Below, piece after piece: positions 8,051 through 28,422 of a stretch of 64,000 bases of DNA; the stretch's first letter is position 1; every line of letters begins with the position of its first letter. This DNA is from Escherichia phage PHB12. The position numbers and the translations under genes are program-made. Below the pieces are notes generated by a model, which made no database searches, was not told where the DNA came from, and saw only the letters and a list, made by a program, of their open reading frames with translations. The DNA lies in sequence record MK524178.1; one strand, given 5' to 3'.

Positions 8051-8449
8051 TTACACTCTATTGCTTGACGCTAACTGAAGTTTAATTTGTTCAATATCGT
8101 CAGGGTTGTCTACGACCGAAAATCTAATCTCTACTATAACCGTATAGTCATCATATACTGGCGTTACACTTACAGAAAGTTTATCGATGCGTGGCTCATA
8201 GTTACGAACAGCTGCCTGTATATTACGCTCAATCGTATCGGCTGTAAGTGGTGTCATGTTCTCGAAAAGTTCGTCGACCAAATCGCATCCAAATTCAGGG
8301 TCGAAGGGGCGTGAGCCTTTTCTAGTTGTCACTATGCCAAGAAGACTATTTTTAATAGAACGAAGTCCTACAGAACGAGCAACGTCCTTGTTCCAATCCA
8401 TACGCATTTCTGGGTCGATATCTGAATAAAGTTTATTGATATTAGACAT
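8051..8449 (-). CDS. 25: baseplate wedge subunit gp25
   Basis: 132 aa; matches T4 gp25. Confidence 0.95.
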   Translation of the reverse strand: MSNINKLYSDIDPEMRMDWNKDVARSVGLRSIKNSLLGIVTTRKGSRPFDPEFGCDLVDELFENMTPLTADTIERNIQAAVRNYEPRIDKLSVSVTPVYDDYTVIVEIRFSVVDNPDDIEQIKLQLASSNRV

Positions 8450-23249: not shown

Positions 23250-23498
23250 TTACTTAAGGGTAATAACAAAATGACGAACTGCTTTACGTGCGGCAGAAGC
23301 CAGAGGCTTAGCATATTTCAATTCATCTTTAGCTTCCAGTTCAGCGGCCAAAGAAGCCTGAGCAGGATTCAGATGTTTGAAATAACGCAGGATTTCAAGA
23401 GCTTCGGCTTCAACATCAATGGATGCACCATAGTTTTCATGACCGTTATTCCATGCGTTGCGTTGCAGTTCAAGAGCGTGTTGTAATTGTTTAATCAT
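23250..23498 (-). CDS. rIII: rIII lysis-inhibition accessory protein (probable)
   Basis: 82 aa, immediately downstream of gene 31 as in T4; late promoter upstream. Confidence 0.75.
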   Translation of the reverse strand: MIKQLQHALELQRNAWNNGHENYGASIDVEAEALEILRYFKHLNPAQASLAAELEAKDELKYAKPLASAARKAVRHFVITLK

Positions 23499-23614
23499 TT
23501 TAAAGTCTCAATTCGAGATAATATTTAGTAGCCACGTTCGTCTGAATTTCACCTTCTTTCGACAAGTCTCTCAGTTGTAGGCTACCGCTTAGAAGAGTGT
23601 TCTCTTCATATAGT

Positions 23615-23622
23615 TATTTATA
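23615..23622 (-). promoter_or_regulatory. late promoter (TATAAATA, minus strand) upstream of rIII
   Basis: Exact match immediately after the gene 31 stop. Confidence 0.6.
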
Positions 23623-23955
23623 TCACTTATAAAGGCACGGAATAGCTTTATAGTGGCATGTTACGAATTTCTGTTTAATTTCTTTAGGTTGTTTAAGACC
23701 TAAAGCCACAAATGGATGCGGAACATTTCGAATTTGTCCAACTGGTAGTGGAGTCAAATCACCGACTTCAACAAAACCTTCAGGAACATCAGGACCTACA
23801 GAATGAACTACACATAGTTCAGGAACTTCACCTTGAACACGTTTACCAATCACAAGTCCTGATTCGGTAACTTCTTCATCACCTGCTTGAGCTGGTTCAG
23901 AAACCAGAATGACATATTCACCAACAGCACGAATTGGGAGTTGTACTTCAGACAT
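23623..23955 (-). CDS. 31: co-chaperonin gp31 (GroES-like)
   Basis: 110 aa; matches T4 gp31 length and position. Confidence 0.92.
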
Positions 23956-24012: not shown

Positions 24013-24321
24013 TTACATAAGAAGCAAACGTTCTACCGGAGTACCATCAACTGAAATTACTTTATCAAGGCGGAAAGAACGCCACTGACCTAACTTGGTG
24101 TCGAATGCTCGAACTGATTCACGAGGTTCATAACGAACTTCTGTTGCCGGATTGTTATTTTCATATTTGACTTCAAGTTCATCGCGCGAAGCAAACATAG
24201 TGCGTACCTCGCCGTTAGCCTTTTCAAATACAACACAATGAACGCCTACAGACAGAATAGTTTTAATACGTTCACGAAGAACCATAGTTTCTTGTTCAGT
24301 TAAAATCATATTATTCACCAC
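24013..24321 (-). CDS. hypothetical protein (102 aa), 31.1 position
   Basis: ORF between cd and gene 31. Confidence 0.65.
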   Translation of the reverse strand: MVNNMILTEQETMVLRERIKTILSVGVHCVVFEKANGEVRTMFASRDELEVKYENNNPATEVRYEPRESVRAFDTKLGQWRSFRLDKVISVDGTPVERLLLM

Positions 24322-24892
24322 AAAAGTTTCGGATTTGTTCCCAATTCAGAGAACGAAGATTATTGCGAGAGTACTGAATTACTTCAATACCGGCTTGTTT
24401 TAGAATGTCTGCCCAATTTTCAGGAGATCGATCATATAATTCTGCGTATACAACCTTTTTAATACCTGACTGCGTAATAGCTTTAGTGCAATCAGGACAT
24501 GGAGAAAGTGTCGTATATAATGTAGCACCTTCAATAGAATTACCTTTACGAGCTGCAAACAAAATTGCATTCAATTCTGCATGGATTTCGTTATTAGCAG
24601 ACCATGCACTATGAGCCGCTCGATGTTCTTTAGCCAAAACAAAATTATCTGCCCGTCCAAATGCTGTAGTGCCTTCTTTATGGCCAGCAACGATGACCGG
24701 GCTTGGTTTATTCTTCAACCAACCATTTTCAGATGCATGTTCACAACAGTTAACGCCACCGGCCGGTGAACCATTATATCCAGTAGAGATAATGCGTCCA
24801 TCTTTTTCAATGACGGCACCAACTTTCCATGAACAACATTTTGATTCTTGAGAAATCAAATAAGCAATTTGAAGATATGTGCTAGCTTTCAT
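24311..24892 (-). CDS. cd: dCMP deaminase
   Basis: 193 aa; zinc-binding HAELNA and SPCPDC motifs; matches T4 Cd. Confidence 0.94.
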   Translation of the reverse strand: MKASTYLQIAYLISQESKCCSWKVGAVIEKDGRIISTGYNGSPAGGVNCCEHASENGWLKNKPSPVIVAGHKEGTTAFGRADNFVLAKEHRAAHSAWSANNEIHAELNAILFAARKGNSIEGATLYTTLSPCPDCTKAITQSGIKKVVYAELYDRSPENWADILKQAGIEVIQYSRNNLRSLNWEQIRNFCGE

Positions 24893-25884
24893 TATTGAAC
24901 CTTATTAATATAAGTTAACAGCTCTTTAGTTTGTTCCCAACTGATGCACGCATCGGTAATGGAAACGCCATAGGACATATTATCAGAAATTTTTTGATTT
25001 CCTTCATGTAGGAATGATTCTATCATAATTCCTTTGACCAAATCATTAGCTGCTAAATTTTTACCAATACCAATTTGATTGCTATAATACCCATCAGCGT
25101 TTGCATGGCTACAGTCAACCATTACATAATGATTCAGACCTAATGCACTTGCTTTGTTAGAAGCTTCTTGAATATCAGAAGAATGATAGTTCGGGCCGTT
25201 AGTCCCGCCACGCAATACGATATGCGTATTCTGATTACCTTCAGCTTCAACAATGCCTACAGTACCATCGACATCCATACCCATATACCGATGAGGCCAG
25301 GCGGCACTATACATCGCGTCTGTAGCTACTTTAATAGAACCATTGGTTGCGTTCTTGAAGCCTACGCACATCGGTAGACCTGAAGCAATTTCACGATGTG
25401 TCTGACTTTCAGTCGTACGGGCGCCAATAGCAACCCATGAGAAAATACCAGAAAGATACTTAATCGTGAATGGGTCTAATACTTCAGTTGCTAATGGAAG
25501 TCCCATACGTAGAAGTTTACGACACAATGTTCGTGCAACTATAAGACCGTGGTTCATATCAAAACTTCCGTCAAGATATGGATCATTTACAAGACCTTTC
25601 CAACCTACGGTAGTTCGAGGCTTTTCAAAATAAACGCGCATCACTAACAGAACATTAGGAAGACGAGTTTGAAGTTCAGCCAGACGTTTGCCGTATTCAA
25701 CAGCAGCAATAGGGTCATGAATTGAACAAGGACCTACAACAATAAGTTTGCGTGGGTCTTCACCGTTCATAATCGAATTAACTTGTTCGCGATGAGAAGC
25801 CACTTGTGATGCGTAAGCTTCTGACAAAGGAATAATCTCAGCCAGTTCTTTTGGAGAAATAAGTTTTCTGACGACAGGTAACAT
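24892..25884 (-). CDS. 3-deoxy-7-phosphoheptulonate (DAHP) synthase, class I (AroF/G/H-like)
   Basis: 330 aa; VVGPCSIHDP, MRVYFEKPRTTVGWKGL, AIGARTTESQTHRE; SD TAAGGA; stop overlaps the cd start. Confidence 0.88.
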   Translation of the reverse strand: MLPVVRKLISPKELAEIIPLSEAYASQVASHREQVNSIMNGEDPRKLIVVGPCSIHDPIAAVEYGKRLAELQTRLPNVLLVMRVYFEKPRTTVGWKGLVNDPYLDGSFDMNHGLIVARTLCRKLLRMGLPLATEVLDPFTIKYLSGIFSWVAIGARTTESQTHREIASGLPMCVGFKNATNGSIKVATDAMYSAAWPHRYMGMDVDGTVGIVEAEGNQNTHIVLRGGTNGPNYHSSDIQEASNKASALGLNHYVMVDCSHANADGYYSNQIGIGKNLAANDLVKGIMIESFLHEGNQKISDNMSYGVSITDACISWEQTKELLTYINKVQ

Positions 25885-26004
25885 AACAATCCTTAGGAGA
25901 TATAAAAAGATTCTGATTCAACAATACCTTTAACCGGATTAGACAGGCTAAGTTGGTAGTGCTCAGATTTATGACCATTCTCGATAGTAATGAGATAGCT
26001 CTCA

Positions 26005-26241
26005 TTATAGTGTTCCATATACTCGAGTTGCTTCAACAAGACCATCACTGCCTAATTTAAGATTAGTAATTTGGTCACCATCTTTAGGATTAACGATTAT
26101 GAGAAAAGAACGTGGAGATTCTTGAATAACTCGTAATGTTGCATCCTGGAAACGTTCAGACACTTTATTGATGAGTGCTTGAGCGAATTCTTTTACTTTA
26201 ATCTGAAATTCGTGTACTGTAATTGGATTTTCACTTAGCAT
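26005..26241 (-). CDS. hypothetical protein (78 aa)
   Basis: ORF preceded by an early promoter (GTTTAC...TACGAT) and SD GAGGA. Confidence 0.55.
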   Translation of the reverse strand: MLSENPITVHEFQIKVKEFAQALINKVSERFQDATLRVIQESPRSFLIIVNPKDGDQITNLKLGSDGLVEATRVYGTL

Positions 26242-26298
26242 TTCGATTTCCTCATTTTGGTTAGAGACATCGTATCACAACTCTACTGTGTTGTAAAC

Positions 26299-26574
26299 TT
26301 AAATTGCAAAACATTTAATTTCTTGTGAATCGAAATCAACTTCACATTGAATTACTAGATCAGCGTCAAGTCCAAACACAACAATCACATGAGCCGAGCT
26401 TGGCAACAGTGTAACAGACACAGAATCCACTTGGTCGGGCACCAGCGTATTCAAAACGTAGAGTAGTTCAGAGTGAATCTTAAGCTCGGTGGCCGTATCC
26501 GGCTTATCAAAGAAATGATTTGCGATAATCTGGCTAAAAACGACCTTTACAATTTCAGAATATTTAGGGAACAT
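26299..26574 (-). CDS. hypothetical protein (91 aa)
   Basis: ORF in cd-pseT interval. Confidence 0.55.
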   Translation of the reverse strand: MFPKYSEIVKVVFSQIIANHFFDKPDTATELKIHSELLYVLNTLVPDQVDSVSVTLLPSSAHVIVVFGLDADLVIQCEVDFDSQEIKCFAI

Positions 26575-26581
26575 AATTACC

Positions 26582-26806
26582 TCAGTGTACAGTATTTACT
26601 TTAACTCGAACAACAAATTGCTCGGTCGGTTCGCCTACAGGAACAAACTCTACATGATATTCGCCTTTGTAACGAGTATTCAAGTCGTTACGAATTTCAG
26701 TAAGCTTGTTGATTAATGTAGAACTCATATTAAGTCCCACTAGTTTACGAAGCATTTTGTATGCTTCATCTTCGATTTCATGATGTTTATCGTACATAGT
26801 TTTCAT
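26582..26806 (-). CDS. hypothetical protein (74 aa)
   Basis: ORF in cd-pseT interval. Confidence 0.5.
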   Translation of the reverse strand: MKTMYDKHHEIEDEAYKMLRKLVGLNMSSTLINKLTEIRNDLNTRYKGEYHVEFVPVGEPTEQFVVRVKVNTVH

Positions 26807-26977
26807 TTAACCATTCAATTGCCTGGTCGACGTTATCAAATATACTGCCGTCCAAACGTTCTTCATGCTCATAGTCCAGCACATCAATACCGAACTGTCC
26901 ATTTACTAAAGGCCAGGCTACAAACAAATATTCTTTATGCTGTTCGATGGCCTCAATCACTTCATATAATCGTTTCA

Positions 26978-26978
<1 letters not shown>
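26787..26978 (-). CDS. hypothetical protein (63 aa)
   Basis: ORF immediately downstream of pseT. Confidence 0.5.
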
Positions 26979-28064
<1,086 letters not shown>

Positions 28065-28065
<1 letters not shown>

Positions 28066-28364
28066 TATTTTATTCCTAAGAAAGTTTCAAGAATACGAAT
28101 GTTATGCTCGCGCCGGTCTTTATTAATTTCAGCAACGTTTTTATTAATTGACGTACTTCTAACGTTTGAAGAAATAAATTTAATCATATGACTTTTGAGT
28201 TGTTGCAAATCCAGCCCTTTTTCTTTAGCAGCTTTACGAAGAGCTTTACCTGCTTTATCTAGTGCCTTTGCTGCATCTTTGTCATAATTGACAAGTGACA
28301 TTCCGTGGCAGATATCAATATACTCATCAGATCGTTTGATGTAAGTCTCTAGTAATGTTTTCAT
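28065..28364 (-). CDS. hypothetical protein (99 aa)
   Basis: ORF with an early promoter upstream. Confidence 0.55.
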
Positions 28365-28392: not shown

Positions 28393-28422
28393 ATTATACT
28401 CTGCTCCCGAGAGTTTGTAAAC
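28393..28422 (-). promoter_or_regulatory. early promoter inside a stem-loop
   Basis: Minus strand GTTTAC - 18 nt - TATAAT; -10 flanked by inverted repeat GGAGCA/TGCTCC. Confidence 0.65.

Follow-up and report, generated by a model that had tools for sequence, protein, structure and literature searches.

Why should a T4-like phage keep a gene for the first enzyme of the shikimate pathway in the midst of its nucleotide-metabolism genes? The question is raised by a 330-codon open reading frame (ORF) with an ATG start which, by ORF listing and translation, occupies exactly positions 24892..25884 of the window, i.e. of the whole 64,000-nucleotide stretch of Escherichia phage PHB12 (MK524178.1) analysed here. 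The frame lies on the minus strand, a point that a preliminary description of the locus had left unstated.

Family and active site of the 330-residue product

What kind of enzyme does the frame encode? The preliminary description had called it a class-I DAHP synthase (DAHPS) of AroG type, collinear with its relatives over the full length, and had proposed a profile search and an alignment as checks. All four motifs on which it relied are present in the translation (VVGPCSIHDP, MRVYFEKPRTTVGWKGL, AIGARTTESQTHRE and IMIESFLHEGNQ), and the profile search returned Pfam PF00793 (DAHP_synth_1; E=1.7e-74, 250.6 bits against a cut-off of 25.5, profile positions 8-269 of 270) and no other TIM-barrel family. 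The NCBIfam model TIGR00034 (aroFGH) scores 426.2 bits (cut-off 173.2) and PRK12755 scores 454.2 bits (cut-off 343); PHROG 5045 aligns its positions 8-337 of 341 with residues 1-330 (E=8.6e-182). Two models are not reached, the AroG equivalog NF006723 (362 bits against 568) and the AroH subfamily NF009396 (385 bits against 463), and the best sequence match of solved structure is E. coli AroF (6agm, E=1.5e-104). The AF2 model (pLDDT 86.1, pTM 0.88) is superimposed by Foldseek on E. coli AroG and N. meningitidis DAH7PS with TM values of 0.91-0.93 and an rmsd of 2.2-2.4 A, and its predicted strands 198-203 and 209-214 form the beta6a/beta6b hairpin of the (beta/alpha)8 barrel. With profiles, predicted structure and alignment in agreement, the ORF is confirmed as a full-length DAHP synthase of type I-alpha (AroF/G/H type), belonging to the AroF lineage and to the phage clade of PHROG 5045; of the earlier label, the family and the collinearity stand, but the closest relative is AroF and not AroG.

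The active site is intact. The metal ligands Cys53, His260, Glu289 and Asp311 (AroG C61, H268, E302 and D326) are invariant across the phage clade, and so are the PEP/E4P residues Arg83, Lys88, Arg90, Gly154-Ala155-Arg156, Lys177 and Arg225 (in AroG, Arg92, Lys97 and Arg99 of the KPRT(T) motif, Gly163-Ala164-Arg165, Lys186 and Arg234), so that the alignment shows all PEP- and metal-binding residues to be kept. Such a protein would be a catalytically competent, metal-dependent enzyme condensing PEP and erythrose-4-phosphate (E4P) to DAHP. Could it instead accept another substrate within the DAHPS/KDO8PS superfamily, joining PEP to arabinose-5-phosphate or a different aldose to make a phage-specific sugar acid? 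The genome paper of phage phiC120 makes a loose connection between the domain and both lipopolysaccharide and aromatic biosynthesis (PMC8022965), and the preliminary description had proposed a test with arabinose-5-phosphate. However, the aroFGH equivalog cut-off is far exceeded, no KdsA model is among the NCBIfam matches, the KPRTT motif and every E4P/PEP contact are identical to those of AroF/G/H, and none of the five clade-specific substitutions described below falls in the active site, all of which makes a different substrate very improbable. Membership of the KdsA family, or of any other TIM-barrel family, is rejected outright on the first two of these grounds together with the presence of KPRTT.

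The locus and its history in T4-like phages

Directly 3' of the DAHPS gene lies cd, encoding dCMP deaminase (24311..24892, minus strand; Pfam dCMP_cyt_deam_1, E=1.5e-26; 72.5% identity to T4 cd). The DAHPS stop codon TAA (24894-24892) and the cd ATG (24892-24890) share base 24892 in the sequence TAATG (24890..24894, minus strand), an arrangement that couples the two genes translationally and recurs in the annotation of phage SF. The preliminary description had rightly reported this overlap, but had worded it as a gene fused into the operon; the gene does adjoin cd, as a separate cistron with a one-base overlap and not as a protein fusion. The Shine-Dalgarno sequence of its own, also reported earlier, is AAGGA (25890..25894, minus strand), which stands 5 nt before the DAHPS ATG and reaches into the stop codon of the 41-aa ORF directly 5' (25893..26018, minus strand; PHROG 15876, E=1.5e-31). 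This small ORF weakly matches the C-terminal half of the cd.2 family, is annotated in phages SF and PECP20, and is absent from RB69 together with the DAHPS gene. Next comes the cd.2 homolog (26005..26241, minus strand; 65% identity to T4 cd.2; Pfam DUF7320, E=1.5e-35), the first gene of the predicted early unit.

Between the cd.3 and cd.2 homologs falls a T4-early-type promoter-like site (26269..26298, minus strand) composed of GTTTACA, a 17-nt spacer and TG-a-TACGAT, i.e. a 9/12 match with a TG extension, and at this cd.3/cd.2 junction the T4 record, too, has an annotated early promoter, Pe133295. The promoter scan overall was not enriched over shuffles (20 sites found against 18.8 expected), so the site is assigned by position and homology only. 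A scan of the minus strand from this site to cd found no terminator-like site. The DAHPS gene is probably transcribed early, within a unit running cd.2 - 41-aa ORF - DAHPS - cd. The T4 pseT-cd interval reads cd.5-cd.4-cd.3-cd.2-cd.1 and contains no DAHPS gene, much as the preliminary description had stated in placing small cd.x ORFs there, and the phage enzyme occupies the place of T4 cd.1. Kinship with T4 Cd.1 itself was rejected, blastp against the T4-locus proteins giving no DAHPS match at E<=0.01.

How widely is the gene shared, and for how long has it been there? It is found in 212 GenBank phage records, 139 of them at least 95% identical, and the annotated protein of Escherichia phage SF (YP_010096495.1, RefSeq) is 100% identical. 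The same pseT-cd interval houses it in six genera (Mosigvirus, Kanagawavirus, Marfavirus, Winklervirus, Bragavirus and Gualtarvirus), where its divergence parallels that of its neighbours cd and pseT. A dN/dS of 0.05-0.18 in informative pairs indicates purifying selection, 99%-identical pairs being uninformative because they hold too few differences. Composition is phage-like (GC 40.5%, GC3 28%), and every clade member retains an unbroken reading frame and an intact active site. The clade is monophyletic (98/100) and stands beside the AroF-type bacterial group; the nearest non-phage sequences, bacterial or metagenomic, are 50-55% identical among the best 120 of 8000 matches, and these 120 include no bacterial donor above ~55% identity. 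The gene would derive from an AroF-like (Tyr-type) ancestor that was acquired, long ago, by the stock from which several T4-like genera arose.

Is it nevertheless conceivable that the gene was acquired recently from the host, or that it is an assembly contaminant or a decaying, functionless passenger? T4 and RB69 do without it, and one database cluster bears the label 'Escherichia coli', though its sole contig measures 170,875 bp and is thus the size of a phage genome. Such a history is barely credible, given an identity of 51% to host AroF with no close bacterial relative among the best 120 of 8000 matches, the shared locus with co-diverging neighbours in six genera, the low dN/dS, the phage-like composition, and a frame and active site preserved in every member. 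Contamination and recent host capture are rejected on the AroF identity, composition, deep synteny and dN/dS; the preliminary description, which had argued for a resident phage gene free of contamination, is borne out by the six-genus synteny, co-divergence, GC/GC3 and dN/dS values. In RB69 the gene is missing through a clean 1.1-kb indel, and the edges of the missing segment are marked in the window by a direct repeat whose copies are 13/15 identical, CTATAATGAGAGCTA upstream (25996..26010, minus strand) and CAATAATGAAAGCTA downstream (24883..24897, minus strand). Because T4 and RB69 lack the gene, it is dispensable in the laboratory, and since both grow well, any benefit it confers must be conditional.

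The gene itself is already known: annotators routinely record it in Mosigvirus and in no fewer than five further T4-like genera, and PHROG 5045 is filed under 'moron, auxiliary metabolic gene and host takeover'. A presence/absence survey had been proposed earlier for what was then described as an unusual auxiliary metabolic gene; it leaves the function standing and takes away the novelty, since annotated copies are common in the phage group (212 records, PHROG 5045, SF). The literature on phage DAHPS yielded passing mentions only, in the phiC120 paper and in a 2025 paper on Klebsiella phage KLB31 that proposes a role in aromatic amino-acid synthesis (PMC8022965; PMC11845039), and the gene goes unmentioned in the Petrov 2010 review of T4 genomes, the F48 paper and a Shigella-phage paper. 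As neither enzymology nor phage genetics was found in that literature, the DAHPS activity and inhibitor insensitivity discussed here are what we infer. New, and seemingly unaddressed in print, are five clade-specific substitutions in the regulatory site.

The remodelled feedback site

These substitutions emerged from a differential-conservation scan of 21 phage-clade against 163 other DAHPS sequences over 330 columns. Only five of the 330 columns are conserved in both groups with a differing residue (in AroG numbering Q151K, D155G, S180P, F209Y and T223A); the phage residue occurs at these columns in 0 of the 163 other sequences, and all five sit in the feedback site or its hairpin, none in the active site. 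In addition, the position of AroG P150 is occupied by Ile, so that feedback-site residues P150, Q151, D155, S180 and F209 read Ile, Lys, Gly, Pro and Tyr throughout the phage clade and in none of the 163 others. The remodelled codons span 25243..25464 on the minus strand and correspond to I141-K142 (AroG P150-Q151; 25464-25459), G146 (D155; 25449-25447), P171 (S180; 25374-25372), Y200 (F209; 25287-25285) and A214 (T223; 25245-25243), as delimited by the residue table, the scan and the roles reported for these positions (PMC9529685). According to the same source, Q151/Q152 and S180/S181 hold the inhibitor main chain in AroG/AroF, D155 provides a stabilising salt bridge, and P150L, S180F, F209A/S and V221A are feedback-resistant mutants of AroG (PMC9529685).

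The N-terminus is altered as well. The preliminary description had put the start some 8 residues later than that of AroG, and the alignment agrees: Leu2 pairs with AroG Ile10, AroF Ile11 and AroH Thr9, so that at this end the phage protein falls short of AroG by 8 residues and of AroF by 9. AroG residues 1-9 have no counterpart, and these include Asp6 and Asp7, which make contacts at the inhibitor site in PDB 1KFL. Might the missing segment be restored from an upstream start? The ORF listing contains no in-frame start 5' of the DAHPS ATG, because it gives the first start after a stop, and in the alignment the short N-terminus is common to the whole phage clade; a rescuing start is rejected on both counts. 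That N-terminal truncation desensitises DAHP synthases is suggested by the AroG-Phe structure and by AroF N-terminal mutants, and a literature search gave no usable direct evidence of such an effect in type I-alpha enzymes. Altogether, the canonical AroF/G/H inhibitor-site residue set (the AroG Asp6/Asp7 segment, Pro150, Gln151, Asp155, Ser180 and Phe209) is not what the phage protein carries.

What do these changes imply for regulation? Tyr, Phe and Trp probably do not inhibit the phage enzyme. The preliminary description had raised possible feedback insensitivity from the truncation, and the suggestion now gains much strength from replacements found throughout the clade, namely of the Gln and Ser that contact the inhibitor and of three more regulatory residues. 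At the same time, the replaced residues are invariant or nearly so across a phage clade spanning 57-98% identity, and conservation peaks in residues 136-180, at 0.94-1.00 where the protein averages 0.72. A merely switched-off site would be expected to drift, and near-invariance therefore fits better with a new constraint or a new ligand. Perhaps, then, the active enzyme is still allosteric, with a new, infection-related effector lodged in a rebuilt Tyr pocket made of Lys142, Pro171, Tyr200, Gly146, Ala214 and the short N-terminus; candidates are chorismate or prephenate, a nucleotide (dCTP, hm-dCTP), or a phage or host protein. The near-invariance of residues 136-180 and of the substituted positions speaks of constraint that is shifted rather than relaxed, the change from Gln to Lys adds a positive charge, which would suit an anionic ligand, and the T4 record has the neighbouring cd enzyme activated by HM-dCTP and dCTP. 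However, the sequence by itself points to no ligand, residues 136-180 include the catalytic GARTTES loop and dimer-interface helices whose conservation may be structural, and Pro at S180 together with the lost N-terminal segment resembles the closing of a pocket more than its reshaping. A new effector is on balance unlikely. It is rather unlikely, too, that the T4-like phage enzymes form a distinct regulatory subclass in which the Tyr pocket, turned into a site for another effector or partner of importance in infection and not just inactivated, couples entry into the shikimate/chorismate pathway, and hence into folate synthesis, to phage nucleotide metabolism.

Proposed role and known relatives

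Taken as a whole, the observations are in our judgement likely to reflect a competent, deregulated DAHP synthase that would sustain chorismate supply during infection. Its gene would be transcribed early from the cd.3/cd.2 promoter and its translation coupled to that of cd, and the enzyme, its feedback site rebuilt and its catalytic site untouched, would ignore Tyr, Phe and Trp. The annotation of the complete close relative PECP20 lists no additional shikimate, aromatic or folate-synthesis gene, an absence that carries little weight because most ORFs there are 'hypothetical'. With no further annotated shikimate gene in the phage, its DAHP must enter the host steps and would feed AroB to AroC. 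Carbon flow to chorismate could thereby be kept up after host expression stops, with the host isoenzymes still inhibited, for the benefit of aromatic amino acids and possibly of pABA/folate and quinones.

Must the product matter at all? An unregulated DAHP synthase might act as a sink for E4P, PEP or both instead of a source of DAHP, pulling transketolase (F6P + G3P -> E4P + Xu5P) toward pentose phosphates for nucleotides, or otherwise rewiring central carbon metabolism. This would parallel the pentose-phosphate auxiliary metabolic genes of cyanophages. It would also suit a gene located within a nucleotide-metabolism region, coupled to cd and ~10 kb from td, frd and nrdAB, and a sister DAHPS gene on an unrelated 262-kb viral contig adjoins genes for thymidylate kinase and a NUDIX protein. 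Yet one PEP would be wasted for every E4P removed, nothing separates a sink from a simple supply role, and the neighbours say little about DAHPS function in a region pieced together from small, unrelated ORFs. Fusions of DAHPS with prephenate dehydratase in giant viruses moreover favour aromatic amino-acid use, and a carbon sink is accordingly held to be improbable.

If the enzyme is indeed insensitive to Tyr, Phe and Trp, it would be a clear case of a lytic enterobacterial phage overriding host feedback at the committed step of the pathway, and would offer a ready-made deregulated DAHPS scaffold for the bioproduction of aromatic compounds. RB69, a natural null, and its DAHPS-carrying Mosigvirus relatives make a convenient test system.

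How does the phage protein compare with known systems? With E. coli AroF, the Tyr-sensitive isoenzyme (6AGM/6AGL), it aligns end to end at 50.8% identity; it keeps every catalytic, PEP and E4P residue of AroF and shares with it Pro at position AroG-147 and Gly at AroG-211. It differs from AroF in lacking counterparts of residues 2-10, in two short deletions near the C-terminus and in the replacement of P151-Q152 by I-K, D156 by G, S181 by P, F210 by Y and T224 by A. Like the laboratory feedback-resistant mutants (AroG P150L, S180F, F209A/S, V221A and D146N, and their AroF equivalents), the phage clade is replaced at P150, S180 and F209, and beyond them at the inhibitor-contacting Q151 and the salt-bridge D155. 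However, its residues are I, P, Y, K and G rather than L, F or A, and they come combined with an N-terminal truncation and fixed by evolution, not singly selected. From the annotated T4-like orthologs of SF, HX01, PhAPEC2, phiC120, CIP9, F48 and phiP4-3, among which it belongs, it does not differ. The type I-alpha DAHP synthases of giant-virus MAG and jumbo-phage-sized contigs in IMG/VR are 40-48% identical and conserve the catalytic residues, but form separate lineages that keep the canonical P150, Q151, D155, S180 and F209. Many of those on giant-virus MAG contigs are fused to a prephenate dehydratase (PDT) domain, which shows DAHPS serving aromatic amino-acid synthesis in viruses. One viral DAHPS alone (L017/L018), sister to the T4-like clade, has both S180P and F209Y.

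A type I-alpha DAHP synthase beside the phage cd gene

The ATG-initiated minus-strand ORF at 24892..25884, which the preliminary description had taken for a class-I DAHP synthase (DAHPS) of 330 aa, has exactly those boundaries and all four motifs quoted for it, and its product is confirmed by sequence and fold as a type I-alpha DAHP synthase. It matches Pfam DAHP_synth_1 (E=1.7e-74, profile positions 8-269 of 270) and passes the curated cut-offs of the NCBIfam aroFGH equivalog TIGR00034 (426 vs 173 bits) and of PRK12755 (454 vs 343 bits), while falling below those of the AroG-specific (362 vs 568 bits) and AroH-specific (385 vs 463 bits) models; no KdsA model among the NCBIfam profiles was matched. 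Among solved structures the best sequence match is the Tyr-sensitive AroF of E. coli (6agm, E=1.5e-104), ahead of N. meningitidis DAH7PS and then E. coli AroG; the protein is 50.8% identical to AroF, 47.6% to AroG and 43.9% to AroH. An AlphaFold2 model based on 17 clade sequences (pLDDT 86, pTM 0.88) agrees at TM 0.91-0.93 with the solved chains of AroG and of N. meningitidis DAH7PS. Alignment with AroF, AroG and AroH located the metal ligands Cys53, His260, Glu289 and Asp311 (AroG C61, H268, E302, D326) and the substrate residues Arg83, Lys88, Arg90, Gly154-Ala155-Arg156, Lys177 and Arg225 (AroG R92, K97 and R99 of KPRTT, G163-A164-R165, K186, R234), all kept and invariant in the phage clade. 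Both the profile search and the residue alignment proposed earlier thus bear out the assignment, and every defining feature of the type that was tested is present; a changed aldose specificity is very improbable.

The DAHPS stop TAA (24894-24892) shares one base with the next ATG (24892-24890) in a TAATG junction, and a Shine-Dalgarno AAGGA lies at 25894-25890 (minus), 5 nt 5' of the DAHPS ATG, both as previously claimed; no in-frame start codon was found between the preceding stop and that ATG. The gene directly downstream is cd, the dCMP deaminase (72.5% identity with T4 cd). Whereas T4 has the order pseT - cd.5 - cd.4 - cd.3 - cd.2 - cd.1 - cd - 31.2 - 31.1 - 31 - rIII, the minus strand of the window reads pseT (26978-27877), cd.4 homolog (26787-26978), a 74-aa ORF between the cd.4 and cd.3 homologs, cd.3 homolog (26299-26574), cd.2 homolog (26005-26241), a 41-aa ORF (25893-26018) directly upstream of DAHPS, then DAHPS, cd, 31.1 homolog, gene 31 and rIII. 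DAHPS therefore occupies the position of T4 cd.1, the gene order of T4 lacking it as the preliminary description stated; a relationship with cd.1 was considered and rejected, the two being unrelated. The 41-aa ORF falls in PHROG 15876 (E=1.5e-31), a family conserved among phages; its weak match to the C-terminal half of the cd.2 family (DUF7320, E=2e-5; PHROG 1504, E=6e-5) may reflect partial duplication of adjacent cd.2. Identity to T4 is far higher for gp31 (96%) and rIII (94%) in 23250-23955 (minus) than for their neighbours (24311-27877, minus, plus 31.1: cd 72.5%, pseT 74%, 31.1 44%), reflecting either a mosaic patch or unusual conservation. The 31.1 homolog (24013-24321, minus) is a WYL_2 / SH3 beta-barrel protein (PHROG 1086); the name 'tail fiber(s) protein', given to it across many related GenBank entries, is probably an error spread by annotation transfer.

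A promoter-like site (GTTTACA, 17 nt, TG-a-TACGAT; 26298-26269, minus) separates the cd.3 homolog from the cd.2 homolog, and the T4 record annotates an early promoter at the homologous junction; a scan found no terminator-like sites on the minus strand from there to cd. The promoter scan as a whole was no richer than shuffled sequence, and it is from position and homology that we infer an early transcript cd.2 - 41-aa ORF - DAHPS - cd, on which DAHPS and cd would be coupled in translation. The strongest sigma-70-like site of the region (TTTACA, 17 nt, TATAAT; 11/12; 28393-28421, minus), upstream of a 99-aa ORF (28065-28364), is probably a further early promoter.

A DAHP synthase beside cd in T4-like phages is already known and annotated. 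The protein occurs in 212 phage records (tblastn), 139 of them with at least 95% identity and Escherichia phage SF with 100%, and its 4.5-kb neighbourhood shares 97-98% identity with many Mosigvirus genomes. The family is catalogued as PHROG 5045 (category 'moron, auxiliary metabolic gene and host takeover'); its domain is named in the genome description of phiC120 (PMC8022965), and the DAHP synthetase of Kanagawavirus phage KLB31 was called in 2025 an AMG that may aid aromatic amino acid synthesis (PMC11845039); neither enzymology nor phage genetics on this protein came up in full-text searches. The presence/absence survey suggested earlier gave a common annotated gene, present at the cd locus in six genera according to record taxonomy (Mosigvirus, Kanagawavirus, Marfavirus, Winklervirus, Bragavirus, Gualtarvirus). 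The remaining interest lies in a putative regulatory remodelling throughout the phage clade, of which we have seen no prior report.

The feedback site

Throughout the clade the start lies 8-11 residues further in than those of AroF, AroG and AroH; L2 of the window protein pairs with AroG Ile10 and with AroF Ile11, in keeping with the start about 8 residues later than AroG noted before. The clade consequently lacks N-terminal residues including AroG Asp6 and Asp7, which in PDB 1KFL extend into the inhibitor pocket of the adjacent subunit. Only five of 330 columns were at least 90% conserved in 21 clade representatives and at least 80% conserved in 163 other type I-alpha DAHPS with differing residues: AroG Q151 (phage K142), D155 (G146), S180 (P171), F209 (Y200) and T223 (A214), the phage residue occurring in none of the 163. 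AroG P150 is Ile in all clade members but one. In the AroG sequence T223 stands two residues after V221, and we take both to lie in strand beta6b. Phe inhibition of AroG is abolished by P150L, S180F, F209A/S and V221A, Q151 (AroF Q152) and S180 (AroF S181) contact the inhibitor main chain, and D155 forms a stabilising salt bridge (PMC9529685). All clade-specific fixed changes thus fall in the feedback site and none in the active site.

The tested features of a feedback-regulated AroF, AroG or AroH isoenzyme are absent from the window protein, and the natural reading is that inhibition by Tyr, Phe and Trp would have been lost; the possible feedback insensitivity raised in the preliminary description gains support from the clade-wide short N-terminus and the five substitutions. 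At AroG positions 147 and 211 the protein has the Pro and the Gly of AroF, which is consistent with a Tyr-type ancestor; the latter position is that of the S213G specificity-switch variants of N. meningitidis in the PDB. Why, then, has the site not drifted, as an abandoned one should? The replacement residues do not vary either, and conservation peaks at residues 136-180 of the protein (0.94-1.00 vs a mean of 0.72), so that a site remodelled for an effector, or a constraint from structure, is possible; a new effector site is nevertheless rather unlikely in our estimate, loss of feedback being preferred.

Descent and the RB69 indel

In every T4-like lineage having it, down to 58% identity, DAHPS lies in the pseT-cd interval (IMG/VR and GenBank), its divergence parallels that of cd (62-99%) and pseT (44-98%), Nei-Gojobori dN/dS is 0.05-0.18 in all informative pairs, and its GC (40.5%; GC3 28%) is close to that of adjoining phage genes. 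This synteny with co-divergence, the low dN/dS and the phage-like composition, together with the intact active site, effectively refute a recent host capture, a contaminant or a passenger without function, to which we give almost no credence. In a neighbour-joining tree of 74 sequences the T4-like clade was recovered in 98/100 bootstraps, with the DAHPS of a 262-kb viral contig, L017, as sister (82/100) and the pair branching next to the AroF-type bacterial group; the closest non-phage (bacterial or metagenomic) proteins are just 50-55% identical (best 120 of 8000 matches). We read this as a single ancient acquisition, inherited vertically since then and lost in places. The L017 gene (3971-5020; IMG/VR, the same gene as in L018) carries S180P and F209Y as in the T4-like clade, lacks the Asp6/Asp7 segment too and has Q151N and D155H; with thymidylate kinase, NUDIX hydrolase and type IB topoisomerase as neighbours, it likewise sits among nucleotide/DNA genes.

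RB69, the type Mosigvirus, is 96% identical to the window up to 24895 and 92% from 25990 on; it lacks precisely the 41-aa ORF and DAHPS, cd.2 reading TAATG into cd (locus L085, ~8237-8255). In the window, 15-nt direct repeats (13/15 identical; 26010-25996 and 24897-24883, minus) flank the ~1.1-kb segment; they take in the cd start (ATAATGA[A/G]AGCTA) and point to short-homology recombination as the route by which the segment was deleted or inserted. Since RB69 does without it, DAHPS is dispensable in laboratory culture. The RB69 cd record (L085:7743-8252), annotated with 169 aa and a divergent tail ...ILKPSWY* vs 193 aa in the window and T4, looks like a frameshift or truncation.

Proposed role and comparison with known enzymes

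As judged from sequence, the gene probably specifies an early, catalytically standard DAHP synthase that would escape aromatic amino-acid feedback and drive PEP and E4P into the host shikimate pathway once host gene expression is shut off. In one complete close relative, most of whose ORFs are labelled 'hypothetical', annotation shows no further gene for shikimate, aromatic or folate synthesis, so the host's AroB to AroC would have to finish the route. The chorismate could go to aromatic amino acids, or else to pABA and folate in support of the chemistry of phage td, frd and hydroxymethylase; td and frd lie ~10 kb away. That the enzyme acts instead as an E4P or PEP sink favouring pentose phosphates seems improbable.

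Other viral DAHPS occur in giant-virus MAG contigs (IMG/VR) as ORFs of 630-680 aa. In L047:3980-6016 and L073:3980-5938 a domain scan found N-terminal DAHP_synth_1 and C-terminal prephenate dehydratase (PDT) ~150 aa apart, joining step one of the shikimate pathway and a Phe-branch enzyme in a single protein; in L056, L059, L066, L068, L070, L074, L075, L077, L080 and L081 fusion was judged from ORF length. Unlike the T4-like clade, these fusion ORFs retain the canonical feedback residues P150, Q151 and S180. The window protein resembles AroF at its active site and engineered feedback-resistant mutants at its regulatory site.
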